Source: a bacterium
GTDB taxonomy: Bacteria > Patescibacteriota > Patescibacteriia > JBAXGH01
Assembly (NCBI GenBank): GCA_037139515.1
Contig: JBAXGH010000001.1
Span: forward strand, 16,101 to 80,100
DNA: 64,000 nucleotides
Direction of reading: 5' to 3'
Shown here one piece after another: positions 4,313 through 62,527 of this stretch (the stretch's first letter is position 1; each line of letters opens with the position of its first letter). The position numbers were made by a program, and so were the translations under genes. The notes under the pieces are model-generated. The model did not search any database, was not told the DNA's origin, and worked only from the letters and a program-made list of their open reading frames with translations.

Positions 4313-5740
4313 TTATTTAGCCGTCTTCATCCATTCAACGAGATGCCGAGTCGCCAAGACATCATCCTCATTATAATCGACGATTTTTTGCAATATCTTT
4401 TTATCTTTTTTCTCCAACCAATCATGATACCAGGCAATCGAATTCGCGCCTGACGCGTCCGAAGAGCGCCACTTGAAACCGAGAAATTTAGCAATATCTT
4501 TGAGAGAATAAAAATATACCGGAAACAAAACCGAACGCGAAACAATCGGCAGCACATCAATCATGATTTCGCGATTACCAAGCACGCGCGCCGCAGTTTT
4601 CGTGATCCCGTATTTTTCCGTGAGCTCTTTTATCACGATAATTTCATACCAACCATAGTGATAAATCGCCAGGTTTTTGTAGCGCCCGATGAAAGCCTGA
4701 AATTCTTTCCAAGCTTTTTCTTCGCCGCTCGGTTTCTTCGCAAGAAAAGGTTTGAACTCAGACTTTCCGTTGCGTACCACCAAGCATCCAAACAAATAAT
4801 GCACGCTGCGCAAAGGATCAGATTCCATGTCGAAATATATTTCCGTTTTGGCTTTTGGAAAATTATATTTCTCAACAATCACGGCTTTTTTATCGCGCAA
4901 AGCCTCAGCCTGAAGCCTTAATCTTTCCAAACGCGGCTGAGTAATCGAAGGAACTTTAGCTTTCAACTTTCCAAGGTTGGCTCCGGCTAGCTTCTTGAGC
5001 TTTCCATAACCACCTTTCAGCAAAGCCTCTCTTTCGTCGGCACGAATCTTGTAAATCAAAGCAACATCGTCTTCGCCCTCGGCATCCAAAATACACTGTT
5101 TGAAATACGGCGACTGCTTACAGGAACCGTAAAGATGCGGTTCCGGCTTCTCCCCGGAAAGCAATTCTTCTACTTCCTTCAATTTTAAGTGATATTTTTC
5201 TTCGTAATCAGCGACGACCAATTCATGCGTGGCGCCAGTTGCATCAATAATATAAGCACGCTCCGGCATCACTCCCTGAGCTTTTTTCAGCAATTCCGAA
5301 TAGAAACACAGCTGCAACCGATGAACCTCTTCAAAGTGAGACGAGCGTTTGATATCGCACGGAACGTACATCCAATCACCCAAATCTGAAGTTCCATCAA
5401 CTCGTTCCAGCAAATCCGGAATCCCGACATAATTCCCATCCATGAGTACGCCGTGATAAATCAACCCAGCACCGTCTTTCATGTGCTTCAGGGTCATTTT
5501 TGCCTGGTCCTCCAGGTCGCCTTCATGTTTGATTTCAACCATGCTGGCTTTTTTCGATTTGAGGGCCACCATTTCTGCCTCATGCAAAAGGCCATCTTTC
5601 CAAAGCTTCTCCGTCATGGCCGAAACCGGCGCGCGTAGTTTGGCATCAGAAAAAGCTTCATGCCAAGGCCAAGCCGGACACTTCGAATATTGATAAAAAG
5701 ATGTGGCTGTGATGCGTATTTCTTGATTTTTCTTTTTCAT
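4313..5740 (-). CDS. RecB-family (Cas4-like PD-(D/E)xK) nuclease fused to an RNase H-like domain, TM0106-type
   Basis: A cysteine cluster typical of Cas4/RecB nucleases (CPAWPWH near the N-terminus, GSCKQSPYFKQC further on). The C-terminal half has the DMESDP...HYLFG pattern of an RNase H-like fold. Assigned by motif similarity only. Confidence 0.4.
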   Translation of the reverse strand: MKKKNQEIRITATSFYQYSKCPAWPWHEAFSDAKLRAPVSAMTEKLWKDGLLHEAEMVALKSKKASMVEIKHEGDLEDQAKMTLKHMKDGAGLIYHGVLMDGNYVGIPDLLERVDGTSDLGDWMYVPCDIKRSSHFEEVHRLQLCFYSELLKKAQGVMPERAYIIDATGATHELVVADYEEKYHLKLKEVEELLSGEKPEPHLYGSCKQSPYFKQCILDAEGEDDVALIYKIRADEREALLKGGYGKLKKLAGANLGKLKAKVPSITQPRLERLRLQAEALRDKKAVIVEKYNFPKAKTEIYFDMESDPLRSVHYLFGCLVVRNGKSEFKPFLAKKPSGEEKAWKEFQAFIGRYKNLAIYHYGWYEIIVIKELTEKYGITKTAARVLGNREIMIDVLPIVSRSVLFPVYFYSLKDIAKFLGFKWRSSDASGANSIAWYHDWLEKKDKKILQKIVDYNEDDVLATRHLVEWMKTAK

Positions 5741-7816: not shown

Positions 7817-8875
7817 TTATTTAACGTCCAGCTTCTCCCAAGGAAATTCGTTCCGCCCAAAATGCCCGTAACAAGCCGTTGCTTTATAAATCGGACGGCG
7901 CAAATCAAGCCGCTCCAATATCGAAGCCGGGCGAAAATCAAATTTTTCTTTCACGGTTTCGGTCAAATCTTTACCTTCTCCGGTACGGGCGCGCAAAAAT
8001 ACCGGTTTTTCTTCGCCACGAGAATAAATCGCCTCAATCATAACGGTGCGGCCTGCACCCATCGCAACTAAGTTTTTAGCCGCAAATCGACACATATAAG
8101 CACTCAAACGATCGATTTTTGACGGATCTTTTCCGGAAAGCGAACCGGCGCCCCAGGGCAAAACGCCACCATAAGTATCGGCTGCGAGCTTCTTTCCCGT
8201 CACGCCGGTATCAACTTGAAAGCCGCCCTGAGTAATTTTTCCGGAATAGTTGATATCAACTTTCACGCCGTCCAAATTCCGAAGCATGGACGCAACCACG
8301 CGTTCGAAAAGCTTGGTGCGAACCATCGAATCATCAACCGAGTCATCGTGTTGAACCATGATTTTGATGAACTTCGGATGTTGACCATCAAAGCCAACCA
8401 TGACTTTTCCGTCCGGACGCAGCCAATTGAAAGAAGAATCCGTGAGACGCAAATCATCCAGCCGTTTTGCGATAGCTTGCGCGAGTACCAAAGAAGCCGG
8501 TAAAAACTGCGGCGTCGCATTCGTAGCATAACCGCTCGCGATGCACATATCGTTAGCACCACCACGTTCACTTGTACGAATCGAATCAGGAGAATCGAGA
8601 GCAATGTTCACAAAAGGCTCAATCTCATCAAGATAACCGATTTCGTGATAGACCTGCTTGGCGACGGTTGCGACGTCAAAATCAGCCTTAGAAGTAACTT
8701 CACCGCCAATAACCATCATTCCGTGGGATCCAAAAACCTCTAAAGATACACGCGAATTGGGCTCGCGACGCAAATATTCATCCAAAACCGCATCGGCGAT
8801 TTGATCGCAGATTTTATCGGCTTGACCTTTAGTCACAACTTCCACGAATTGCATACGATCGGAGTGAAAAAACAA
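7817..8875 (-). CDS. metK: S-adenosylmethionine synthetase
   Basis: GQADKICDQIADAVLD (GHPDK-like) and GAGSLSGKDPSKIDRLSAY (GGGAFSGKDPSKVDRSAAY-like) motifs. The true start is probably the internal Met (MQFVEVV, about 8854). Confidence 0.85.
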   Translation of the reverse strand: MFFHSDRMQFVEVVTKGQADKICDQIADAVLDEYLRREPNSRVSLEVFGSHGMMVIGGEVTSKADFDVATVAKQVYHEIGYLDEIEPFVNIALDSPDSIRTSERGGANDMCIASGYATNATPQFLPASLVLAQAIAKRLDDLRLTDSSFNWLRPDGKVMVGFDGQHPKFIKIMVQHDDSVDDSMVRTKLFERVVASMLRNLDGVKVDINYSGKITQGGFQVDTGVTGKKLAADTYGGVLPWGAGSLSGKDPSKIDRLSAYMCRFAAKNLVAMGAGRTVMIEAIYSRGEEKPVFLRARTGEGKDLTETVKEKFDFRPASILERLDLRRPIYKATACYGHFGRNEFPWEKLDVK

Positions 8876-8906
8876 AAAATCAAGAAATCAAAAAATCAAA
8901 CTTCTT
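8876..8906 (-). promoter_or_regulatory. U-rich UUGAUUU-repeat 5' leader of metK with no Shine-Dalgarno sequence
   Basis: The minus-strand reading is UUGAUUUUUUGAUUUCUUGAUUUUUUG directly upstream of the start. The same motif precedes eno and gap. Confidence 0.5.
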
Positions 8907-17400: not shown

Positions 17401-17423
17401 ATATGACACCGAATCCGAACTAC

Positions 17424-18623
17424 TCAGCCAAGGTACGAGGTGAACTCGCGAACCGAATTACGCACGTTCAGCATCCACTTTCGCGAACCACCAAGGTCGG
17501 CTCCGTCATAGCGGTCCTGAACAGCCTGGATGCAGCTACGGGCCTCCTCCCGAAGGGCGCTAGAGACACTTCCCTGCGCCCTCCACATGGCCCGCAGAGT
17601 CCGCTTGCGCAGCTCCCGAACCGCCTGCTTGAATCCGTCTCCAATGAGAGGCGAAGACTGCAAGTAGCCGTTCTCGATGTTCGTCTTCTGCACGGATTCG
17701 ATGTGCTCCGAAGCCCGCGCCCGATCACGCAGTTCCGACGTGAGCATCCGAATTTCCATCCGTCCGTGATTTCCGGGACTCACGAAGTCTCGGGCAAGCA
17801 CCGTCTGAAGATGCTCGCTGATGCGCACATACGGACGCGCCGTAATGCCCTGAAGCAGCGTCGTTGCCCTCGCGGCACCTTCCATGAACCTCTCAACTTC
17901 CGATCCCGAAAGCGCGTTTCGACTTGCCGCCCGCAGAAACCAGTACTCGCCGAATCTGCGCACGGCGTCAAAGACCCCGTGATACTCGTCGACCAGCGCC
18001 CGCATCGCGAGCACGTCGGTATCGATGAATTGGTAGATCCGACCAACTTCGCGCAGACGATTCCAGAGTTCCGAATTCGCCGAAACCAGCTGTGCCGCCG
18101 ACTTGCCGGGATTCACGCGATTGCGCTTGTCACGCATGTTCGCGCCGTGCACCAACTCCTCGAAAGCATGAACCTTGTGCTCATTCTCAACGTTCACAAG
18201 ATCAGCCGCGACGTGCAGAGCGAGCTTCTGAACACTCGCCTGCACCGTACCCTTCAGCCCGGCATACATATTGATGTACGAAAGTGCTTCGTGAACCGTC
18301 CTGCGATGTGCCAGAAGCTCGGGCGTTTCGTACCACTCAACCGCCCTCTTCCTGTGGCGCATCATTCCGCTCATCGCGTCCCAGACACCCTGGTCATAGA
18401 CGTCGAATCGTCCCTTGACCCAGCGCCCCGACATGTGAAGCACGGTGCCGTGAGGCAGGATGAGAATCGCGCCATCGATGTCGAAGATCTGTCTTCCACG
18501 CGTGATAAGCGTCCTCGGGCTCCCACGAACACGGTCGACCGCCACACTTACTTCACCATACTTCGTCTGAATTCCTGGACCCGCACTCGGCTTTTCGACC
18601 ACGAACGCCTCCGATTGGCGCAA
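17424..18623 (-). CDS. hypothetical protein, GC-rich (~58%) single-gene island
   Basis: The antisense long ORF (17403..18647 +) is Arg/His/Pro-rich junk typical of high-GC antisense, so the minus ORF is taken as real. No family recognised. It is flanked by terminators on both sides. Confidence 0.5.
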   Translation of the reverse strand: MRQSEAFVVEKPSAGPGIQTKYGEVSVAVDRVRGSPRTLITRGRQIFDIDGAILILPHGTVLHMSGRWVKGRFDVYDQGVWDAMSGMMRHRKRAVEWYETPELLAHRRTVHEALSYINMYAGLKGTVQASVQKLALHVAADLVNVENEHKVHAFEELVHGANMRDKRNRVNPGKSAAQLVSANSELWNRLREVGRIYQFIDTDVLAMRALVDEYHGVFDAVRRFGEYWFLRAASRNALSGSEVERFMEGAARATTLLQGITARPYVRISEHLQTVLARDFVSPGNHGRMEIRMLTSELRDRARASEHIESVQKTNIENGYLQSSPLIGDGFKQAVRELRKRTLRAMWRAQGSVSSALREEARSCIQAVQDRYDGADLGGSRKWMLNVRNSVREFTSYLG

Positions 18624-18660
18624 AGCGCCATTAAAGAAAAGGTCTGACCCGACGGCAATA

Positions 18661-25046: not shown

Positions 25047-26078
25047 TTACGATGACCAACAGATAGGAGTAAAACTCGCGATAAGTTTACTCGCATTTCC
25101 GTGTGAGCACAGCCCTAAATACGAAGTTGTTCTTTCTTTAGAAGATTCTTCTAGTAATCTTCGCATCATTCGTTTTTTTGTCGCGGTTCGTAGAATCCGA
25201 TGATCCGAAAAATGCACCCAGCCAAGAAAATCAACCCCCGAAGCCAACGTTTCGATAAACACTTTATCAGGGTGCAGCTGCAACTTTAATCGTCGGCACA
25301 AAAAGTCATCAATCACAGGTAGTAGACATTCAAGATATTGTTTTTCGTGATGCAAAAATACAAAGTCATCCGCATAACGCAGATAATACTTTACCCGTAA
25401 TTCGTGTTTTACAAATTGATCAAATTCATTCATGTACGCATTCGCGAGCAGCTGCGAGGTCAAATTCCCGAGCGGCAGACCAATTCCCCCGTCATTCCCG
25501 CGAAGGCGGGAATCCATTTTAGGGTAACTTGTCACAATAGTCCTAAGGAGATCAAAGATTCGTTCATCAAAAATATAGCGACGTAAAATTCCAAGTAATG
25601 TATTTTGATCAATCGAGGCAAAGAATTTTCGTATATCGCATTTTAAAACCCAACAGGTTCGACGATGATTCAAACTCACTTTCCGCGCAAAATCACGAAA
25701 ACGATTCATGGCCGCGTGCGTTCCCTTCCAATTTCGGCAAGAAAAAGAATCCGCAACAAAGCGCTGGTCGAAAAACGTATACAATTTGCGATATAATGCG
25801 TGATGTAAAACCCGGTCACGAACCGAAGCCTTGTGAATATGACGCCGCTTTGGGTCGTTCACGAAAAAGTCTTGATATATTCCATGACGATATTTAGCTA
25901 CACTTAGTTCCTCATGAAGTGCTAAAATATTGTCTACAAGATGCCGTTCATATTCCAACACATCAGGCTTGCCGTGTTTCCCACAAGAAAATTCGCGCCA
26001 TGCTTCAAATAAATTTTCTAACGAAATAATTTCTTCAAAACTACGTTTAAAGCACCCAATATGGTTACCCCCCCCCAA
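25047..26078 (-). CDS. diversity-generating retroelement (DGR) reverse transcriptase
   Basis: RT motifs including YLRYADDFV (YxDD) and the DGR-specific GLPLGNLTSQ (I/LGxxxSQ in place of the group II QGxxxSP). TR and VR lie 0.4-1.0 kb upstream on the same strand. The start is ambiguous: it is called as TTG inside a G9 run. Confidence 0.85.
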   Translation of the reverse strand: MGGGNHIGCFKRSFEEIISLENLFEAWREFSCGKHGKPDVLEYERHLVDNILALHEELSVAKYRHGIYQDFFVNDPKRRHIHKASVRDRVLHHALYRKLYTFFDQRFVADSFSCRNWKGTHAAMNRFRDFARKVSLNHRRTCWVLKCDIRKFFASIDQNTLLGILRRYIFDERIFDLLRTIVTSYPKMDSRLRGNDGGIGLPLGNLTSQLLANAYMNEFDQFVKHELRVKYYLRYADDFVFLHHEKQYLECLLPVIDDFLCRRLKLQLHPDKVFIETLASGVDFLGWVHFSDHRILRTATKKRMMRRLLEESSKERTTSYLGLCSHGNASKLIASFTPICWSS

Positions 26079-31722: not shown

Positions 31723-31775
31723 AGGGGGTAAAAAATCAAGAAAACAATAAATCAAGAAATCAAAAATACACACAA
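31723..31775 (-). promoter_or_regulatory. U-rich UUGAUUU-repeat leader of eno with no SD
   Basis: On the minus strand UUUUUGAUUUCUUGAUUUAUUGUUUUCUUGAUUUUUUACCCCCU precedes the ATG. A second array lies at 31835..31900. Confidence 0.5.
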
Positions 31776-31901
31776 CATGATAACACAAAAGACGCCTAAT
31801 GCTATTAAGCGTCCTCAGTGTTGTGTTTTTTTGATTTATTGATTTCTTGATTTTTTGTCCCGCGTCCTGTCCCTTAGTTTCTTGATTTATTGATTTCTTA
31901 C

Positions 31902-36910: not shown

Positions 36911-36955
36911 AAATTCAATAAATCAAAAAATCAATAAAACAAGAAATCAAAAGAC
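36911..36955 (-). promoter_or_regulatory. gap promoter (-10 TATAAT) and UUGAUUU-repeat leader with no SD
   Basis: The minus strand reads GGTATAATGTCTTTTGATTTCTTGTTTTATTGATTTTTTGATTTATTGAATTT followed by ATG. Confidence 0.5.
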
Positions 36956-38976: not shown

Positions 38977-39660
38977 TTGTTCATTCAAACATTGGCTGCT
39001 TTGATGCTCGCGGCGCCTCCGGCTACTCCGGAAACCGCAAAACTCAAACTCGCCCCGGAATGCTTCGCTTGGTCACCACGCGAAAACTGCGATCCGAAAC
39101 ATTCCCTGATCTTCCCAGTCCTTTTCAGAAGCCGGCTCAAAGACTACGAACTGATGCAGTTTGTCGGCAGCCGCTACGGCAAGCGCTGCAACCCGGTCGA
39201 GAGCAAACCCGGCAAGTGCCTCGACGATTTTCACATGGGTCTCGACATCAAAGTTCCACGCGGTACCCCGGTGGCTTCGGTTCGAGGCAATGGTCGCGTA
39301 ATCGAAATCACGCCAATCAATTACTGCCTCCTCATCGAGTACGCCTGGGAAGAGCCGCTCGCGAAGATGACCCAGCGCGCCAAGTATTGCCACCTTGATA
39401 AGATCTATCCGAAGGTTGGCGATCGCATCGAAAAAGCCGGCACCGCGATTGGCGAAGTTGGCGACCGCGGTCACGCAAAGGGCGTTCACCTGCATTTCGA
39501 GCTCAGCGTCCCGCGTGGTCAACCGGTCAGCGAATGGGAAGAAGAAACCTGCGTACCGGATGTGCCGGCGAAAATCCTGGCTATTCCGTATAAAGAAGTT
39601 CGTTTCCCAACTATCGACCCGAGCTGCTACAGCTATCGGGTCGGATATCGCAACCAATAG
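38977..39660 (+). CDS. secreted M23-family (LytM-like) metallopeptidase
   Basis: Signal peptide. HMGLDIKVPRGTPV (HxxxD) and HLHFEL (HxH) motifs. Local GC is about 55% and the antisense ORF 39073..39675 is spurious. Confidence 0.65.
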   Translation: MFIQTLAALMLAAPPATPETAKLKLAPECFAWSPRENCDPKHSLIFPVLFRSRLKDYELMQFVGSRYGKRCNPVESKPGKCLDDFHMGLDIKVPRGTPVASVRGNGRVIEITPINYCLLIEYAWEEPLAKMTQRAKYCHLDKIYPKVGDRIEKAGTAIGEVGDRGHAKGVHLHFELSVPRGQPVSEWEEETCVPDVPAKILAIPYKEVRFPTIDPSCYSYRVGYRNQ

Positions 39661-46786: not shown

Positions 46787-51153
<4,367 letters not shown>

Positions 51154-51190: not shown

Positions 51191-51270
51191 CCGTCATTCC
51201 CGAAATTTGAGCACAAATTGTCGGGAATCCATTTTCTTCAAATAGACTCCCGCCTTCGCGGGAATGACGG
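51191..51270. repeat. family-2(i) repeats: variant copy with a 20-nt palindromic insert, plus an inverted canonical copy GTCATTCCCGCGAAGGCGGGAGTC
   Basis: Other copies at 25491..25518 (inside the RT CDS) and 52842..52874. Confidence 0.65.
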
Positions 51271-52142: not shown

Positions 52143-52688
52143 ATGCCTAAGCAAACAAGTAATTACGGCCGTCGCTGGTATGCCATCCATACCTACTCCG
52201 GCTACGAAGAGAACGTCGAAGACAACCTTCGCAAGCGTATCGACTCGATGGACAAAGAGAAAGAAATTTTCAACATTCTGATTCCGAAAGAAAAGAAAAT
52301 CAAAATCAAGAACGGCAAACGTCGCGTGGTTGAGGAAAAAATCTTCCCGGGCTATGTCTTGGTTGAAATGATCGTGACGGATGATTCCTGGTACGTTGTG
52401 CGCAATACCCCAAACGTGACCGGTTTCATCGGCACAGGTACGACGCCGACTCCCGTTTCGGAAGACGAAATCAAGGCGCTTCAGTCACGCATGGGCGTCA
52501 ATGAGCCGCAATTCAAACTTGATGTTACGGTTGATTCTCCGGTTCGCATTTCCGACGGCCCATTCAAAGGCTTCGAAGGAAAGGTTTCGGAAATCGACGA
52601 AGCTCGCGGCAAAGTCAAGGTGTTGGTCAATATGTTCGGTCGCGAAACTCCAATCGAACTCGACTTCTTGCAGGTTAAGAAGATATAG
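52143..52688 (+). CDS. nusG: transcription termination/antitermination factor NusG
   Basis: RRWYAIHTYSGYE NGN start and the C-terminal KOW motif GPFKGFEGKV. Confidence 0.9.
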   Translation: MPKQTSNYGRRWYAIHTYSGYEENVEDNLRKRIDSMDKEKEIFNILIPKEKKIKIKNGKRRVVEEKIFPGYVLVEMIVTDDSWYVVRNTPNVTGFIGTGTTPTPVSEDEIKALQSRMGVNEPQFKLDVTVDSPVRISDGPFKGFEGKVSEIDEARGKVKVLVNMFGRETPIELDFLQVKKI

Positions 52689-52699
52689 CGCTCGACACT

Positions 52700-52830
52700 A
52701 CAAAATAAAACACGGGTCCTGGGTCGGTATGTGTTGCGCGTTCGAGACGGGACTGTCCCCAAAGCCGCAGGGGACTGTCCCTCCGAACGCGTAACACGGG
52801 GCCCCTCCCACCCGTGCTTTATTTTATACA
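52700..52830. repeat. ~130-nt imperfect palindrome (outer AAAATAAAACACGGGT/ACCCGTGCTTTATTTT, inner GGGACTGTCCCC x2)
   Basis: Read directly in the nusG-rplK spacer. Confidence 0.5.
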
Positions 52831-52934
52831 TTCGAACCCCCATCGTCATTCCCGCGAAGGCAGGAATCCATTCTAGTCCCAGTTTCGCGCGAAAATGAAT
52901 TGCCTGCCGAAAAAGGGGCCCCTTTCGTAATGGA

Positions 52935-53088
52935 GTGATTACGGTTTTGGGCCGTATTTTGCGAGAAGCCCACAGGCGCCCAATCTTAACTACGAATTTC
53001 AGCTAAACTCAGCGGGCGCCGAGGACCAGAAGGCGCGACTCCACACGCGCCGGTTCTCGCAAAATATGCCCAAAAGCCGTAATCCGAA
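52935..53088. repeat. ~150-nt element bounded by 30-nt inverted repeats (ATTACGGTTTTGGGCCGTATTTTGCGAGAA / TTCTCGCAAAATATGCCCAAAAGCCGTAAT)
   Basis: Read directly. It ends 8 nt before the rplK -35. Confidence 0.5.
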
Positions 53089-53095
53089 GTCCTGC

Positions 53096-53125
53096 TTGAC
53101 GTTTAATGTGGAATTAGATATAAAT
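53096..53125 (+). promoter_or_regulatory. sigma-70-type promoter of rplK (TTGACG-17-TATAAAT)
   Basis: Exact hexamers with 17-nt spacing, followed by a ~110-nt leader. Confidence 0.6.
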
Positions 53126-53237
53126 CACGGGCTTAAAACAAAGGCGGCATCCACCGCCACTTCTCTTCTCTGGAATCGTCTGGGTCGGCCAATGCGTTAC
53201 CTCATTGCCCACACCCGTACTAATTCCAAAACTCAGT

Positions 53238-53663
53238 ATGGCCAAGAAAATCAAGGCCCTAGTCAAGCTCCAGATTCCGGCAGGCGCAGCTAACCCAGCT
53301 CCTCCAGTCGGTCCGGCTCTCGGTCAGCACGGTGTCAACATTCAGGATTTCTGTCAGAAGTTCAATGCCGCAACCCAGGCCATGCGCGGTGATACGGTTC
53401 CGGTCATCATCACGATCTACGATGACCGCTCGTTCACCTTCATCATGAAGACGCCTCCGGCCGCCGATCTTATCAAAAAGGCCATTGGCCTCGCGAAAGG
53501 ATCCGGCAAGCCGCAGTCGGAAAAGGTTGGCAAAATCACGATGGCTCAGATTCGCGCCATCGCTGAAAAGAAAATGCCAGACATGAATTGCCGAACGGTT
53601 GATGCCGCAGCTCGCTGTATTGCCGGTACCGCAAAGAACATGGGAGTTGAAATAGTTGGGTAG
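53238..53663 (+). CDS. rplK: 50S ribosomal protein L11
   Basis: [35 protein letters not shown]. Confidence 0.95.
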
Positions 53664-53671
53664 GTTCAAGA

Positions 53672-53760
53672 AATCAAAAAATCAAGAAAACGAGAAATCA
53701 AGGAACGCTGCCCGCGCCCTTGATTTTTTGATTTCTTGATTTTTTACCAATACCGGGCGG
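53672..53760. terminator. 19-nt perfect inverted repeat of AATCAAGA units enclosing a GC hairpin; candidate terminator after rplK (no rplA follows)
   Basis: AAGAAATCAAAAAATCAAG ... CAAGGaacgctgcccgcgCCCTTG ... CTTGATTTTTTGATTTCTT. Confidence 0.45.
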
Positions 53761-53764
53761 CTTT

Positions 53765-53822
53765 TCGTATTGACAAAGCTAAGATTCTTTGCTAGTTTCA
53801 GCTGAGTCCGAGAAAGGAGGAC
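53765..53822 (+). promoter_or_regulatory. promoter/operator CGTATTGACAAAGCTAAGATTCTTTGC plus SD for the HExxH gene
   Basis: Shares a CGTATTGACAAA..T.A.A.TCTTTGC motif with 54821..54860 upstream of the amidohydrolase gene. Confidence 0.45.
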
Positions 53823-54764
53823 GTGATGAATTTTCTCAAACACAATCTGATGATTCTCATCCCCCTCACGATATGTGCAGCGCTCTTCGGCGCTCGCGTG
53901 TATCAGAAAGCCGAACAGGAACAGACGCTGGCTCAAAAGGAAAAAGCGCGCGCAGAAGCCGAAGATAAACGCAGCAAGAACGAAGCTCTGAAAGACTGGC
54001 AATATGCCTACACCGATCATACAGCGCTTCCGCAGGGTACTCAGGTAAGCTTCCCCGCGATTCCGCCACTCGTCATTTGTCGACCAGACAATGCTGGCAC
54101 CGAAGGCTGCACAATGGAACTCATGGGCAGATTCTCGTGGCTCCTATCACAGCTCCCAGAACCTTCGCGTGGCGCGCTCACCGCGTCTATCGAGAACAGT
54201 GAGGTTTTTCCCGGACTGCTCTCCGATGCCGACTATGTTGGCGCGGCGTTCATCACCGAAGAGAAAGCCTTGCCGGACGGCGGAATGCTCGTAAAACCGC
54301 GCCTCGGAGTTTCAGGAACTGCACTCATGAAAATTCCGCAGGAAAAAGGAGTCGGCGAAACCCTCGTCGCCATCCTGCACGAATACCGTCACTTCCTTCA
54401 GTGGCACGAGGATTGTCGCAGGCAAGGCAAAATCGTGAGCAATCGCGTGGACCGAAGGCGAATCTTGCCAATGAGCGAAGCAAAATGTGCACAGCACTGG
54501 GAGAATGAGCACGAGGCATACTTTGAAGGCTGCTACCGAGCCTTCAGCTGGGGGCTTCCGAGAAACAATCTCTCCGACCTCTGCGACAAGCTTGATGATC
54601 CGAGCGTAATTGCCTTCAAACGTGCACTCTTCTTCGCGCTTGGAAATACTATCGGACAAGACAAGCAACCCGAATGTCTCCCGGTTTGGGCGCGCCTCGC
54701 CGGACACCCGCACCCGGAAGCGTTTGCCGAATATTGGTCACAGCGCAAAAACAGAAACCTATGA
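53823..54764 (+). CDS. membrane-anchored hypothetical protein with an HExxH motif (putative metallopeptidase-like), GC-rich
   Basis: N-terminal TM segment, coiled-coil, then LVAILHEYRHFLQWHED. Local GC is about 57%. Confidence 0.4.
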   Translation: MMNFLKHNLMILIPLTICAALFGARVYQKAEQEQTLAQKEKARAEAEDKRSKNEALKDWQYAYTDHTALPQGTQVSFPAIPPLVICRPDNAGTEGCTMELMGRFSWLLSQLPEPSRGALTASIENSEVFPGLLSDADYVGAAFITEEKALPDGGMLVKPRLGVSGTALMKIPQEKGVGETLVAILHEYRHFLQWHEDCRRQGKIVSNRVDRRRILPMSEAKCAQHWENEHEAYFEGCYRAFSWGLPRNNLSDLCDKLDDPSVIAFKRALFFALGNTIGQDKQPECLPVWARLAGHPHPEAFAEYWSQRKNRNL

Positions 54765-54870
54765 CCCTAAGCTCCGCTTCAAAAACGGAGCTATTTTATT
54801 ATCCGATACAGCCTCGGGCATCGTATTGACAAAAATCAAAATCTTTGCGATTCTACGCCTTGCAAAACAA

Positions 54871-55719
54871 ATGCCCGTCGGGCAGAAAGCGAGTCGTACC
54901 TTGGAAATCATTGACGCACATGCTCATTTGGGCTCAAAAGCCACAGAACAGACGAGGCCCATCCTTGTGAGCGCTGACGAACTCGTCGCTTCGATGGACA
55001 AGAACGGAATCTCGAAAGCGCTCGTGATCGCACGTGCCGAGAGCGGGACTTCGAATGCCAGGCTCATGAGCGATCTCAAGCCACACCGCACGAGGCTTTT
55101 CGCGATTGCGGAAGTTGGGCCAGGAACAGAGCACGCCGACGCGCAGCTGGATTTCCTTTGGCCACTTCTGGAAGATGGTGTGATCCGTGGATTCAAGCTT
55201 TATCCCGGAAACACCAAGTGCCACTCATTCGACAAACGCCTGCACAAGTACCTTGAATCCCTGGAAGATGCCGGCCGACCGGTTATCGTCCATACCGGGG
55301 ACTGTCTCTGCCGCGTTCCAGGCTCCGACCTGGCTTTCGTGAAAGCTCGTTCAGTCGAGATTCTCGCGACGATGATGCCGGAACTCAAGATCGTGATGGC
55401 GCACGCCGGTGCCCCACACATCGCGGACACCGTCAAAGCCTGCCTCGAGCATCCGAACGTGAGCGTCGATTGCTCCGGGTTCATGCGCACGCGAACCGAC
55501 GACGAAGACGATTCTGAGACCGCCTGCGACACGCGCTGGCTCCTGACATGCTTGATGCAGCTTCTCGAGGCCATCGGACCCGAACGGATTCTCTTCGGTA
55601 CCGACTTCCCAATCGCACGACACATGCCGTACATCAAGGCCATGAACGGAATGCCGATCACGGCGGACAAGCTCGCGCTCATCATGAGCGGAAACGCCAA
55701 GCGGATTTTCGGCCTGTAA
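54871..55719 (+). CDS. amidohydrolase-2 family TIM-barrel metal-dependent hydrolase, GC-rich
   Basis: IIDAHAHLG start motif, HTGD and MAHAG metal-ligand motifs, and a FGTDFP C-terminal motif. Confidence 0.6.
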   Translation: MPVGQKASRTLEIIDAHAHLGSKATEQTRPILVSADELVASMDKNGISKALVIARAESGTSNARLMSDLKPHRTRLFAIAEVGPGTEHADAQLDFLWPLLEDGVIRGFKLYPGNTKCHSFDKRLHKYLESLEDAGRPVIVHTGDCLCRVPGSDLAFVKARSVEILATMMPELKIVMAHAGAPHIADTVKACLEHPNVSVDCSGFMRTRTDDEDDSETACDTRWLLTCLMQLLEAIGPERILFGTDFPIARHMPYIKAMNGMPITADKLALIMSGNAKRIFGL

Positions 55720-55780
55720 TCAGAACCTTTTCGCGAGTTAGTGCAACGCAAAGCGCCCCAGAATACCGGGGCGCTGTTTT

Positions 55781-56002
55781 TTATCTTGTCTGGCACTGCG
55801 CTTCAACCGCCTGCAGCCTTTGCCCCATCTCCTGCGTCATCCGAGTCAGCGCATCGCGAGTCATAAGTACGTAAACACCGAAAACCAGAACTACGACCAG
55901 CGCCACGATATTCGCAAGCCAGCCATCGTGATGATGATGATCAAACAAACTGTGAGCTCCGACTGGTTTTTTCGCCTCGACGACCTCCTTTCGTTTTGGC
56001 AT
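55781..56002 (-). CDS. small His-rich membrane protein
   Basis: 73 aa with an HHHHD tract and one TM helix. It starts 2 nt after the upstream small membrane ORF ends. Confidence 0.35.
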   Translation of the reverse strand: MPKRKEVVEAKKPVGAHSLFDHHHHDGWLANIVALVVVLVFGVYVLMTRDALTRMTQEMGQRLQAVEAQCQTR

Positions 56003-56282: not shown

Positions 56283-56349
56283 ATTTTACCACATTCCCAT
56301 TTCTTCTTCCTCTACAAAACAAAAATCAAAATCACTCAGGTACGGAAAT

Positions 56350-60698: not shown

Positions 60699-61541
60699 CT
60701 ATTTTAATCTTTTCTGCTCTTGCGATTTCTTAAAATTATCACCGTTCACGATTTTTTTACCGGTTTTTGATTCAATTTCTTTGCGCGCATTGCCAGCTAT
60801 ACTTCCACCCTCGCGCGCTACCGACCTATTTTCATCAAAATCCTTCGGCTCGCGCTTTTGTGAGATTTCCGTCGTCGCCGTTTCCGCGAGCATGCTCAAA
60901 ACCAATTCCATGTTAGACATGTTATCGTGAAGATTTTCTTTCTTTAAATCTTTAAGATTTTTATATTCTTTGGTCGTAAGTCCAGCCCAAGCTTTTGTGA
61001 TTTCGTCAGTCAGAATCGCAAATTCCAAACCCTCTTTCACCCCGCGCGTCTCCCACTCATTCGTGAGCGACTTGCGAATCTCGATACTCTTCAAGCGTTG
61101 ATTCACCCATTCCGGGCTATATCCTTTCTGCAAATACGTTTTAAGAGCGCGATTAATGGCGAGTTCCGGATCGGCGGCTTCTTCAAGTCGCTCATAACCG
61201 ACGCGGGCGAGCCAAAGCTTGAACGGTTCGGCATTCTGCGAAGGCACCGACTGAATCAACCGAAGCATAGTTTCGGTATCGGCGGCGTCCGTCGTGCGCA
61301 TCTTGCCGTCCGGAGCCACCATTTTCAAACCGTGACATTTTGTCACGGTTTCATTTCCACCTTCTTTTAACAGCCTTTCTTTCAACTTTCGCCAATAAGC
61401 GACCGGGTCGATACTTTTCGTTAGAACCGCAAGAACGTCAGACACCGCAAAATACCAAAGTTCTTTTTCCGCATCCCAGTGGCGACGAATCTGCTGCCCA
61501 TCGAACAAGGCAATGACTTTAGCTTTTGGGAGTTGATTCAT
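60699..61541 (-). CDS. dinD: DinD-like DNA-damage-inducible protein
   Basis: The C-terminal region FAILTDEITKAWAGLTTKEYKNLKDLKKENLHDNMSNMELVLSMLAETATTE parallels E. coli DinD FAIFQNHGYQGLYGGLDQKAIHQRKGLKKNQKILDHMGSTELAANLFRATQTEE. The promoter's -10 TAGAAT lies 11 nt before the ATG (near-leaderless). Confidence 0.5.
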   Translation of the reverse strand: MNQLPKAKVIALFDGQQIRRHWDAEKELWYFAVSDVLAVLTKSIDPVAYWRKLKERLLKEGGNETVTKCHGLKMVAPDGKMRTTDAADTETMLRLIQSVPSQNAEPFKLWLARVGYERLEEAADPELAINRALKTYLQKGYSPEWVNQRLKSIEIRKSLTNEWETRGVKEGLEFAILTDEITKAWAGLTTKEYKNLKDLKKENLHDNMSNMELVLSMLAETATTEISQKREPKDFDENRSVAREGGSIAGNARKEIESKTGKKIVNGDNFKKSQEQKRLK

Positions 61542-61642
61542 ATCAGAATATTCTAGCAAGAACCGGGAGAATGTCGATAATAACAAAAGTCCCAGACCCG
61601 CGGTTGCGGTTCTGGGACGGGAAGAACAGAGGGAATGAGGAC

Positions 61643-62527
61643 TTAAAGTACTGCCACGAAACGGAATGCGAAGCAGTCGTTCGAGCGCGACGGACGATAG
61701 CTGTCGACAAGCGCAAGGCCACCGAACTCACGGTTACCGACGAGGAGCCGAAAACCCGAGTCGTAACGATTATCACACCACTCCCAGGAGTATGTGCTCC
61801 CAAGATCCGGCAGATCCATCCCGCGACTCGCGCGCAGCTCGTTCATGACGTTCGCGAACAGGTTGTACTGCTCCGCTGTCATGTGGCGGAACGCGCCGGC
61901 TGTGAGGTGAAACTCGCGGTCGAGCTTCGGGTAATGCGTCTCGACGCAGTCATTCCAACTCACGCCGAACCGCGTCTTCAGACCCAGGATCTCGGTGATC
62001 TGATCCTTGTACGCGGCCTCGTCATCCCAGTTGAGCTTCGGGGTCGTATCCACGATACCCCAGAATCCTTCGATCGGCTTGCGCTCGATCTCGGATTCGT
62101 CGGTGTACTGGCCCCACTTGGGCTTCACAAAGCTGTTCGGGTAATCCGCCTCCGTGACCGACGGGAAGTACCACCACATGAGTTGGGGGTACTTTTCGAG
62201 CGCCGCCGCGGTTTCCGCGCTCACCTCCATGAGTGGCGGAACCACGATTCCCTTGCCCGGAAAAAGCTCGTCGTACAACTCCTGGAAGAACTCCTGCGGC
62301 CCGGCAAGCTTCACGCCACCCTTGGTCTTCCGGGCAATCAACGCCTGGATTTCGGCGAAAAGGCCTTCTTTAGCATCAATCTCAAGGAGTTGCCTCATCT
62401 GCCCAGTCGACATCTTCTTTTTCTTCGCTTTCACGAGAACCTCCAAACCATCCGCGGGAGCACAAGTGACAGCGCCGTATGCGCCAGCATTTTGGTTACC
62501 CTTTGGACAGCCGACACATAATCGCAT
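61643..62527 (-). CDS. hypothetical protein, GC-rich (~58-60%) island
   Basis: The antisense ORF 61526..62521 is Arg/His-rich junk. There is a hairpin terminator at 61596..61625. No family recognised. The likely start is the internal MSTGQ. Confidence 0.45.
   Translation of the reverse strand: MRLCVGCPKGNQNAGAYGAVTCAPADGLEVLVKAKKKKMSTGQMRQLLEIDAKEGLFAEIQALIARKTKGGVKLAGPQEFFQELYDELFPGKGIVVPPLMEVSAETAAALEKYPQLMWWYFPSVTEADYPNSFVKPKWGQYTDESEIERKPIEGFWGIVDTTPKLNWDDEAAYKDQITEILGLKTRFGVSWNDCVETHYPKLDREFHLTAGAFRHMTAEQYNLFANVMNELRASRGMDLPDLGSTYSWEWCDNRYDSGFRLLVGNREFGGLALVDSYRPSRSNDCFAFRFVAVL

Follow-up and report, generated by a model that had tools for sequence, protein, structure and literature searches.

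Gene layout and predicted products

The region described here lies within a 64-kb stretch of DNA, referred to as the window, which was analyzed as a whole. It contains rplK, the last gene of a secE-nusG-rplK cluster, followed on the same strand by a gene for a membrane-anchored, zincin-like protein (gene A) and a gene for an amidohydrolase (gene B). The features of the region are listed below.

53238..53663, plus strand: rplK, ribosomal protein L11, 141 aa (Pfam Ribosomal_L11_N, 1.4e-29; Ribosomal_L11, 1.1e-27)
53666..53748, plus strand: AT-rich long hairpin with 28-nt arms and a GC-rich loop, then a T-run; likely rplK terminator
53765..53798, plus strand: predicted promoter of gene A, with a putative start; near 53805; motif 53765-53792, TCGTATTGACAAA-N8-TCTTTGC; -35 TTGACA 53770-53775, 17-nt spacer, extended -10 TG 53790-53791, -10 TAGTTT 53793-53798
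53826..54764, plus strand: gene A, 312 aa; ATG 5 nt after the ribosome-binding site AGGAGG (53815-53820)
54770..54802, plus strand: intrinsic-terminator-like hairpin after gene A; 7-bp stem AGCUCCG/CGGAGCU, 9-nt loop, U-rich tail
54821..54854, plus strand: predicted promoter of gene B, with a putative start near 54861; motif 54821-54848; -35 TTGACA 54826-54831, 17-nt spacer, extended -10 TG 54846-54847, weak -10 GATTCT 54849-54854
54871..55719, plus strand: gene B, 282 aa; Pfam PF04909 (Amidohydro_2), 95.4 bits against a cut-off of 26.4
55752..55782, plus strand: strong intrinsic terminator after gene B; 8-bp GC-rich stem and T6

The arrangement of hairpins indicates that rplK, A, and B are separate predicted transcription units, each with its own terminator. 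The rplK hairpin, identified by its inverted repeats, has a folding energy of -35.5 kcal/mol (z = -5.15) and is made of a dispersed repeat, further copies of which lie in the window at 8874-8899, 31727-31899, and 36914-36950. The hairpin after gene A folds with -10.9 kcal/mol (z = -3.58) and also appears in the list of a consensus terminator scan. The terminator of gene B is the top-ranked site of that scan (-17.8 kcal/mol) and closes the block; convergent minus-strand genes lie beyond it. A known leader RNA was rejected as a candidate, as an Rfam scan of the whole window was empty.

Both open reading frames exist as originally predicted, with a correction to the start of gene A, which is the ATG at 53826 rather than the GTG one codon upstream at 53823. 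In exact-sequence look-ups, gene A was matched only with the ATG at 53826, while the starts originally given for A and B matched nothing. The contig matching gene A is 100% identical to the window and therefore provides no population variation. For gene B, one gene caller placed the start at TTG 54724 (331 aa), but the N-termini of homologues and the JGI/ENA call favor 54871.

The product of gene A fits its earlier description as an HExxH membrane protein. An N-terminal transmembrane anchor is followed by a long charged helix and then by a zincin-like domain containing the HEYRH motif (H185, E186, H189), E228, four conserved cysteines, and the C-terminal motif WARLAGHPHPEAF. Across 32 family sequences, E186 is invariant, and H185 and H189 each show a conservation of at least 90%. 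E228, located downstream in a WxxExEAY motif on helix 218-241 of the structural model, also reaches at least 90% conservation and is a candidate for the third metal ligand. The family comprises about 100 clusters and was found by an exhaustive HMMER scan only; word-indexed protein searches returned gene A alone, even with the family alignment as query. There was no sequence match in Pfam, NCBIfam, or the PDB, which places the family outside the named peptidase families, and Foldseek searches of the model against the PDB and BFVD gave no significant match. Gene A thus probably encodes a membrane-anchored zincin-type metallopeptidase of a family without a name, with a predicted extracytoplasmic topology and putative catalytic activity. 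Its four conserved cysteines suggest two disulfides.

Gene B was correctly predicted to encode an amidohydrolase. The PF04909 match covers residues 14-282 and the complete profile (positions 1-289 of 289). This family includes ACMSD, LigI, and sugar lactonases. In an alignment of 13 sequences, residues D15, H17, H19, K109, H141, H178, and D245 are invariant; the metal-binding HxH, His, His, and Asp (H17, H19, H141, H178, and D245) are thus all retained. The best homologue outside its own cluster is 37% identical. By these criteria the product is a predicted cytoplasmic metal-dependent TIM-barrel hydrolase with an intact HxH-K-H-H-D metal site and presumed catalytic activity. The invariant Lys109 may further point to a bridged binuclear center, which is not known to be typical of characterized PF04909 members.

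The upstream repeat and its promoter-like architecture

A repeat search of the window revealed a 28-nt direct repeat at 53765-53792 and 54821-54848, with one copy ahead of each gene, the two sites 1056 nt apart, and 23 of 28 positions identical. Its exact blocks, TCGTATTGACAAA and TCTTTGC, are separated by 8 nt. Within this center only 3 of 8 positions match, and the flank upstream of the repeat matches at about 14 of 30. The motif of the original prediction therefore does precede both genes, and its coordinates were accurate to within 1-2 nt. The full motif was found nowhere else in the 64-kb window, where other matches were at chance level only (12-mer with at most 2 mismatches; gapped 23-mer with at most 3). 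Its supposed absence from other promoters holds for this full form, but not for the core TTGACA-N16/17-TGn, which also precedes three further genes, the most GC-rich non-ribosomal ones of the window after A and B. The spacer segment ACAAAAATCAAAATC of promoter B is seen again at 56319-56333.

The motif has the architecture of a sigma-70-type promoter, with a -35 element, a 17-nt spacer, and an extended -10 TGc, and we predict that it is active as such. Both copies carry an exact TTGACA and a TGC at -15 to -13. Of the two -10 hexamers, TAGTTT in copy A has T1, A2, and T6, while GATTCT in copy B does not have T1. A consensus promoter scanner called neither site, and promoter B would produce a leader of only about 10 nt without a Shine-Dalgarno sequence. 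Since both -10 hexamers are poor, promoter activity may need an activator or another sigma factor.

To describe generic preferences, we used 83 promoter-like sites in related Patescibacteria loci, where A is preferred at -29 (0.65) and -28 (0.60), T at -17 (0.63), G at -14 (0.60), and C or G at -13 (0.72). About 12 of the 20 block positions match the preferences of these sites, and most of the motif is generic Patescibacteria promoter architecture. Eight more positions are identical between the copies without a generic preference: TCGTA just upstream of the -35 element, plus T-19, C-18, and T-16. Among the 14 TTGACA sites of the window, which form 91 pairs, the two promoters agree at 17 of 22 non-hexamer positions, while the next-best pair agrees at 13. 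The regions upstream of A and B thus resemble each other much more closely than expected from chance or from promoter function by itself, and because the eight identical positions exceed generic preferences, the two promoters probably share ancestry or a constraint. However, 12 identical block positions, 8 of them without generic preference, around a randomized 8-nt center could reflect selection for a bound protein as well as ancestry.

Promoters of the same kind occur beside homologues and in unrelated organisms. Upstream of gene A homologues, a TTGACA promoter is present in three of four contexts and a TTGACG promoter in the fourth, while the upstream regions of three gene B homologues carry TTGACA or TTGACG promoters, with one lacking any. 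The TCGTA and TCTT positions are absent upstream of these four A and three B homologues, all of which are distant (25-37% identity). A metagenome-wide motif scan gave 11 matches, 8 of them distinct and none from the source organism; the exact 19-base motif was present in unrelated metagenome contigs, with a -10 element (TATATT, TACAAT, or TGCAAT) directly after it in 3 distinct cases.

These comparisons bear on the proposal that the 28-nt module is an operator or activator site, at which a dedicated factor or an alternative sigma factor binds TCGTATTGACAAA and TCTTTGC and co-regulates A and B. Such a site would account for the 8-12 positions that are identical beyond generic preferences next to a decayed center and upstream flank, and the weak -10 hexamers would suit activator dependence. 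However, the conserved blocks fall on the regions contacted by the polymerase (-35, and -17 to -13), and the same motif in its exact form is an ordinary promoter in unrelated organisms. The weak dyad ACAAAG-N8-CTTTGC of copy A is complementary at five of six positions, and at only four of six in copy B. Furthermore, a search of the neighboring genes identified no regulator in or beside the block, the 64 kb contain no third site, and the extra positions are not seen at homologues of A and B in other contexts. We therefore regard this proposal as possible but rather unlikely, and the dedicated factor put forward in the original prediction found no support: there is no regulator nearby, the dyad is weak, and the extra positions are missing at homologues. 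An extended version, in which the gene A family represents Patescibacteria cell-surface zincin proteases outside Pfam and NCBIfam that process host or environmental peptides, and in which gene A is co-regulated with the amidohydrolase by a lineage-specific factor recognizing TCGTA-TTGACAAA-N8-TCTTTGC, we consider improbable. If it were true, the two genes would form a small scavenging regulon in an episymbiont.

Composition and the rplK-rplA junction

Gene A has a GC content of 54.4% and gene B one of 58.0%; the block as a whole reaches 55.0%, compared with 48.1% in the window. The original estimate of about 57% for both genes thus fits B but is too high for A. GC3 is 0.588 in gene A and 0.700 in gene B. 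With a GC of 0.545 and a GC3 of 0.620, rplK is close to gene A, whose GC3 is indistinguishable from that of rplK, rpsB, and nusG. Codon usage was analyzed for the 48 genes of the window, without plus-strand shadow ORFs; the GC-rich plus-strand ORFs at 17403-18647 and 61526-62521 were rejected as such, the real genes being on the minus strand. In this set, gene B has the third-highest codon-usage distance. The GC and codon analysis suggested alongside the original prediction thus singles out gene B as a clear outlier, whereas gene A resembles rplK. In three of four genomes, the gene A homologue exceeds its host locus in GC content, which makes high GC a trait of the gene A family.

A tblastn search with E. 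coli L1, a query that matched L1 at 49 other loci, detected no rplA in the whole 64-kb window, including the 10.3 kb downstream of rplK. The absence of rplA after rplK, as originally noted, is thus confirmed. It is not specific to this insertion, however: at 31 of the 80 related rplK loci no L1 is present within the available flank of up to 6 kb, and 11 loci have unrelated stretches of 1-5 kb inserted ahead of it. Breaks and insertions at the rplK-rplA junction are common in this clade. A homologue of A or B beside rplK was seen at none of the 80 loci, the closest relatives among which are distant (NusG identity at most 81%). In the nearest relatives by NusG identity rplA still adjoins rplK, and the genes after rplK in the closest relative (L081) have no homologue in the window. 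The best L11 identity in the genome collection is 73%, with no close relative or sister genome there.

In the light of these data, it is improbable that A and B form one horizontally acquired island that entered as a whole between rplK and rplA and displaced the latter. In favor of such an island, the GC of the block exceeds that of the window (55% vs 48%), gene B ranks in the top three for codon-usage distance, and neither gene occurs at the 80 related loci; but gene A matches rplK in GC and GC3, its high GC is shared by its family, and the broken junction is widespread in the clade. The two genes differ in GC3 (0.59 vs 0.70) and are separate transcription units, and their homologues were never adjacent in the seven distinct contexts examined. 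No integrase or transposase ORF is present, and a tRNA scan of the whole window was empty, which rules out a tRNA-targeted island as a candidate. A phage or defense origin was likewise rejected, with no match for A or B in PHROGs or PADLOC. A 17-nt imperfect direct repeat (14/17; pattern AATACCGGG(C/G)(G/C)GCT) at both block edges, 53749-53765 and 55762-55778, could resemble an insertion scar. However, other chance repeats in the window equal it in length and match quality, and its right copy is simply part of the terminator of gene B (loop and 3' stem), so it was discarded as a scar. Contrary to the original suggestion of acquisition as a unit, A and B were probably not acquired together.

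Coincidence, meaning that two independent strong promoters converged on an optimum with neither shared origin nor shared regulation, is very improbable: although about 12 of 20 block positions are generically preferred and an identical 19-base pattern arose in unrelated organisms, all 8 positions without generic preference agree (about 3e-5 by chance), none of the other 91 - 1 pairings of TTGACA sites stands out in this way (17 matches vs at most 13), and the sites are only 1056 nt apart.

Interpretation and comparison with known systems

The locus is real but largely ordinary. We favor, with moderate confidence, an interpretation in which A and B are served by parallel ordinary promoters, likely of shared origin or under a shared constraint, and constitute separate units at a broken junction that were probably not co-acquired. 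On this interpretation, rplK, A, and B would follow one another on the same strand as three transcription units, each ending in a terminator hairpin, and A and B would be lineage-specific accessory genes at the site of the lost rplK-rplA linkage. Each gene would have its own sigma-70-type promoter, with the -35 region TTGACAAA, a 17-nt spacer, T-17, an extended -10 TGc, and a weak -10 hexamer. Because the eight extra positions agree and the 8 nt in the middle of the spacer match at chance level only, the two promoters are most likely copies of one, or have been kept alike by the same constraint. The housekeeping RNA polymerase would then suffice to transcribe A and B in parallel, without the need for a dedicated regulator.

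The result is mainly a clarification. The supposed special operator is largely a standard Patescibacteria promoter (TTGACAAA, T-17, extended -10 TGc), and the supposed rplA-displacing island is one case of the rplK-rplA break that recurs in a group known to lose L1. The analysis also provides a compact description of promoter architecture for an uncultured CPR lineage, and shows that the most GC-rich accessory genes of the window all carry consensus promoters of the extended -10 type. The gene A family, with its roughly 100 clusters and a confident structural model, could enter family databases and be tested as a surface protease.

Loss of L1 has been documented in a Parcubacteria subgroup (bioRxiv 10.1101/2022.01.07.475337, citing Brown et al. 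2015). The present locus resembles this loss and the ribosomal-operon rearrangements of CPR/Parcubacteria in that rplK is not followed by rplA, as at 31 of the 80 related loci. It differs in that the absence applies to the window, so that L1 may be encoded elsewhere, and in that the nearest relatives keep rplA beside rplK.

The promoters share with extended -10 sigma-70-type promoters the TTGACA element, the 17-nt spacer, TG at -15/-14, and T at -17, as well as their placement 30-45 nt upstream of the start codon and right after the preceding terminator. They differ in their weak -10 hexamers (TAGTTT and GATTCT), in the eight extra positions common to both copies, including TCGTA, which are not required generically, and, for promoter B, in a predicted leader of about 10 nt that lacks a Shine-Dalgarno sequence.

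Gene B resembles Amidohydro_2 proteins in its full-length Pfam match and in the retained HxH, His, His, and Asp. It is set apart from members of that family by an identity of at most 37% to anything outside its own cluster and has no equivalog-level assignment, the best NCBIfam hit being a partial fuconolactonase match (26 bits against a cut-off of 400). Gene A was compared with gluzincin-like metallopeptidases, such as minimal zincins (PDB 3e11), the BlaR1 sensor domain, M48/BepA, and SprT/Wss1. It differs from these known zincins in having no sequence match to any Pfam, NCBIfam, or PDB family, and it combines a single N-terminal anchor and a long charged helix with four conserved cysteines and the family-specific C-terminal motif WAxLAGHPHPEAF.

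Layout of the locus

The host is an uncultured Patescibacteria/CPR MAG; in a set of 185,579 species representatives, the best matches of its L11, the rplK product, come from Patescibacteria and do not exceed 73% identity, and the best NusG identity is 81%. Genes A (312 aa) and B (282 aa) lie downstream of the secE-nusG-rplK cluster, arranged as follows.

51915, secE, upstream member of the secE-nusG-rplK cluster
52143-52688, nusG, same cluster
53238-53663 (+), rplK, same cluster
53666-53748, long AT-rich hairpin and T-run after rplK (RNA fold -35.5 kcal/mol, z = -5.15)
53765-53792 (+), motif copy 1 (promoter A), upstream of gene A
53826-54764 (+), gene A
54770-54802, 7-bp hairpin and U-rich tail after gene A (RNA fold -10.9 kcal/mol)
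54821-54848 (+), motif copy 2 (promoter B), upstream of gene B
54871-55719 (+), gene B
55752-55782, strong GC hairpin and T6 after gene B
Beyond 55782 (-), convergent genes: two small membrane proteins, then pheT and pheS

Judged from the order of hairpins and motif copies after rplK, the genes rplK, A and B appear to be transcribed as three separate units, all from the same strand.

The nusG-rplK spacer (52689-53237) measures 550 nt, compared with about 10-420 nt, mostly below 250 nt, in related loci. Within it lie a 31-nt inverted repeat (52937-52967 / 53054-53084, 87% complementary) and GGGACTGTCCC repeats (52748-52782), and its segment 52844-52872 recurs at 25490-25518 (96%) and 51252-51269. 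No Rfam family matches the spacer, which may represent a small inserted element or a novel leader RNA. An AT-rich repeat, AAAAAATCAAGAAATCAAAAAATCAAG, is dispersed in intergenic regions (53666-53745, 8874-8899, 31727-31766, 31825-31899, 36914-36950 and 5718-5731), often as REP-like inverted pairs around a GC-rich centre, one of which makes up the hairpin with 28-nt arms that follows rplK. A related 15-mer, ACAAAAATCAAAATC, is found in the promoter B spacer (54829-54843) and at 56319-56333.

Two related predicted promoters

The direct repeat in front of A and B spans 28 nt with 23 identities, comprising the exact blocks TCGTATTGACAAA and TCTTTGC with 8 nt between them. The window has no other good match to either the 12-mer or the gapped 23-mer; near matches occur at chance frequency. 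The original prediction of a shared motif, absent in full from other promoters, is thus borne out. When the 14 TTGACA sites of the window were aligned at the hexamer and 22 flanking positions were compared across 91 pairs, promoters A and B agreed at 17 of 22, and the next-best pair at 13. At least 17 matches were reached by only about 5e-4 of the 5,565 pairs formed between promoter-like sites of related loci, a tail that may include orthologous promoters.

The motif is a predicted sigma-70-type promoter with an extended -10 element, both copies carrying TTGACA and a 17-nt spacer ending in TGC, followed by TAGTTT (A) or GATTCT (B). Generic preferences were drawn from 83 TTGACA-N17-TAnnnT sites in 80 Patescibacteria rplK loci (A-29 0.65, A-28 0.60, T-17 0.63, T-15 0.47, G-14 0.60, C/G-13 0.72), and they identify TTGACAAA ... 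T.TGC as the putative ordinary promoter form of this group. Three further sets of sites agree with this assignment of the motif core. The same form is found upstream of 17424-18623(-), 38977-39660(+) (M23 peptidase) and 61643-62527(-), which are the window's other three non-ribosomal genes of highest GC, and gene A homologues in other genomes have TTGACA promoters (TTGACG in one case). Eight distinct, unrelated metagenome sequences also contain the exact 19-base pattern, and three of them continue directly into a -10 hexamer (TATATT, TACAAT or TGCAAT); in one of the three, L093, the hexamer is followed after about 20 nt by the start of a gene.

After removal of the generic positions, 8 identical positions are left (TCGTA at -40 to -36, T-19, C-18 and T-16), with a chance probability of roughly 3e-5, whereas the two promoters match at only 3/8 positions in the centre of the spacer and about 14/30 of the 30 nt upstream. 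This contrast argues that promoters A and B have a common origin or are kept similar by a shared constraint.

We consider the best explanation, and a fairly probable one, to be that A and B are accessory genes that would be transcribed independently from sister sigma-70 / extended -10 promoters and that sit in a variable slot of a CPR genome. Co-regulation by a dedicated factor, as originally proposed, retains the relatedness of the promoters in its favor, but the dyad in the motif is weak (5/6 complementary in copy A, 4/6 in copy B), no third motif site occurs in the 64 kb, and no regulator gene was found near the A/B block. An operator or regulon in which the motif serves regulator binding is the less likely reading.

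The slot after rplK and the origin of the genes

No homologue of L1, the product of the expected rplA, was found anywhere in the window, in line with the reported absence of that gene; the query, E. coli L1, was validated by its detection of L1 in 49 other loci. Conservation of A or B next to rplK, which would have spoken against the original proposal, was seen in 0 of 80 related rplK loci, and in L081, the closest relative, rplK is followed by genes that lack a homologue in the window. L1 is missing from the flank examined (up to 6 kb) in 31 of these 80 loci, and a Magasanikbacteria-like clade shows this lack within that flank. In 11 loci (L009, L028, L034, L043, L046, L054, L055, L057, L066, L077 and L079, about 6420 to L1 start), 1-5 kb of unrelated genes separate rplK from rplA, encoding, by translation only, membrane proteins and ldh/mdh-like, pyrE/pyrF-like, MGMT-like and 2-hydroxyacid dehydrogenase products. 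In a rough NusG+L11 neighbour-joining tree, the window falls on a long branch, lying between insert-bearing clades and those that lack adjacent L1, and L1 loss has been published for a Parcubacteria subgroup (bioRxiv 10.1101/2022.01.07.475337). The missing L1 and the unrelated inserts at many loci therefore mark the post-rplK slot as a recurrently variable site.

A and B are accessory genes, and the A+B block is GC-rich (55.0% versus 48.1% for the window). The originally noted value of about 57% for both genes fits B (58.0%) better than A (54.4%), and codon usage divides them in the same way: B ranks third among 48 genes in codon-usage distance and second in GC3, grouping with 17424-18623 and 61643-62527, two genes without a family match, whereas A (GC 0.544, GC3 0.588) resembles rplK (0.545, 0.620), rpsB and nusG. 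In 3 of 4 genomes, homologues of gene A exceed their host loci in GC, so the elevated GC of A is partly a family trait. The partner gene is absent within 5-6 kb flanks in 3 distinct B-homologue and 4 A-homologue contexts, where the neighbours are unrelated housekeeping genes. With homologues unlinked in these 7 contexts, no integrase, transposase or tRNA found, differing composition and a variable locus, acquisition of A and B as a unit is unsupported.

A 17-nt direct repeat (14/17), AATACCGGGCGGCTTTT (53749-53765) and AATACCGGGGCGCTGTT (55762-55778), lies exactly at both edges of the block and could be an insertion scar or chance; its right copy belongs to the gene B terminator, where it makes up the loop and 3' stem, and other chance repeats from the same search are at least as good.

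Across the window, the top codon-usage outliers are at 17424, 61643 and 54871 (gene B). The five most GC-rich non-ribosomal genes, A and B among them, all have consensus TTGACA-N16/17-TGn promoters, and the M23 peptidase gene (38977) has the RBS context GAAAGGAGGAC in common with gene A. Adjoining the GC-rich gene 61643-62527, which lacks a family match, 60699-61586(-) encodes a Bro-N-type protein matching the PADLOC candidate defence family PDC-S13 (1.7e-127) and phrog_15286 (3.9e-116). In gyrB (47695-51153(+), 1152 aa), translation alone reveals an apparent intein-like insert, with an HNH/LAGLIDADG-like middle segment between conserved GyrB halves.

The two gene products

Gene B is a full-length Amidohydro_2 match (95.4 bits), with D15, H17, H19, K109, H141, H178 and D245 invariant in its alignment and a closest outside relative at 37% identity. 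Its start at ATG 54871 is backed by homologue N-termini and alignments and by the JGI/ENA call; this start lacks a Shine-Dalgarno sequence, and its leader is predicted to be about 10 nt long. A Logan public gene call instead begins at TTG 54724 (331 aa, 41-nt overlap with gene A) and would cross both the terminator of gene A and promoter B; we rejected this start, which conflicts with the homologue N-termini and the JGI/ENA call.

The gene A product, recorded at NCBI as 'MAG: hypothetical protein WCJ29_00345 [bacterium]', has no sequence match in Pfam, NCBIfam, PHROG, PADLOC or PDB. When 1.84 billion cluster representatives were scanned exhaustively with HMMER, 103 relatives emerged at E<=1e-3, mostly of 250-350 aa and 25-37% identical. 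Their alignment has an N-terminal hydrophobic anchor, a charged helix and a Pro-rich segment, and contains HExxH(Y)xQW, in which E186 is invariant and conservation of H185 and H189 reaches at least 90%, WxxExEAY with E228, and WAxLAGHPHPEAF at the C-terminus. Four conserved cysteines (C221, C236, C253 and C284) suggest two disulfides. From these features, the product is probably a membrane-anchored, extracytoplasmic zincin-like peptidase of an unnamed family. This family, without a match in the searched Pfam and NCBIfam copies, is the most useful by-product of the analysis; A and B themselves are further members of already known kinds.
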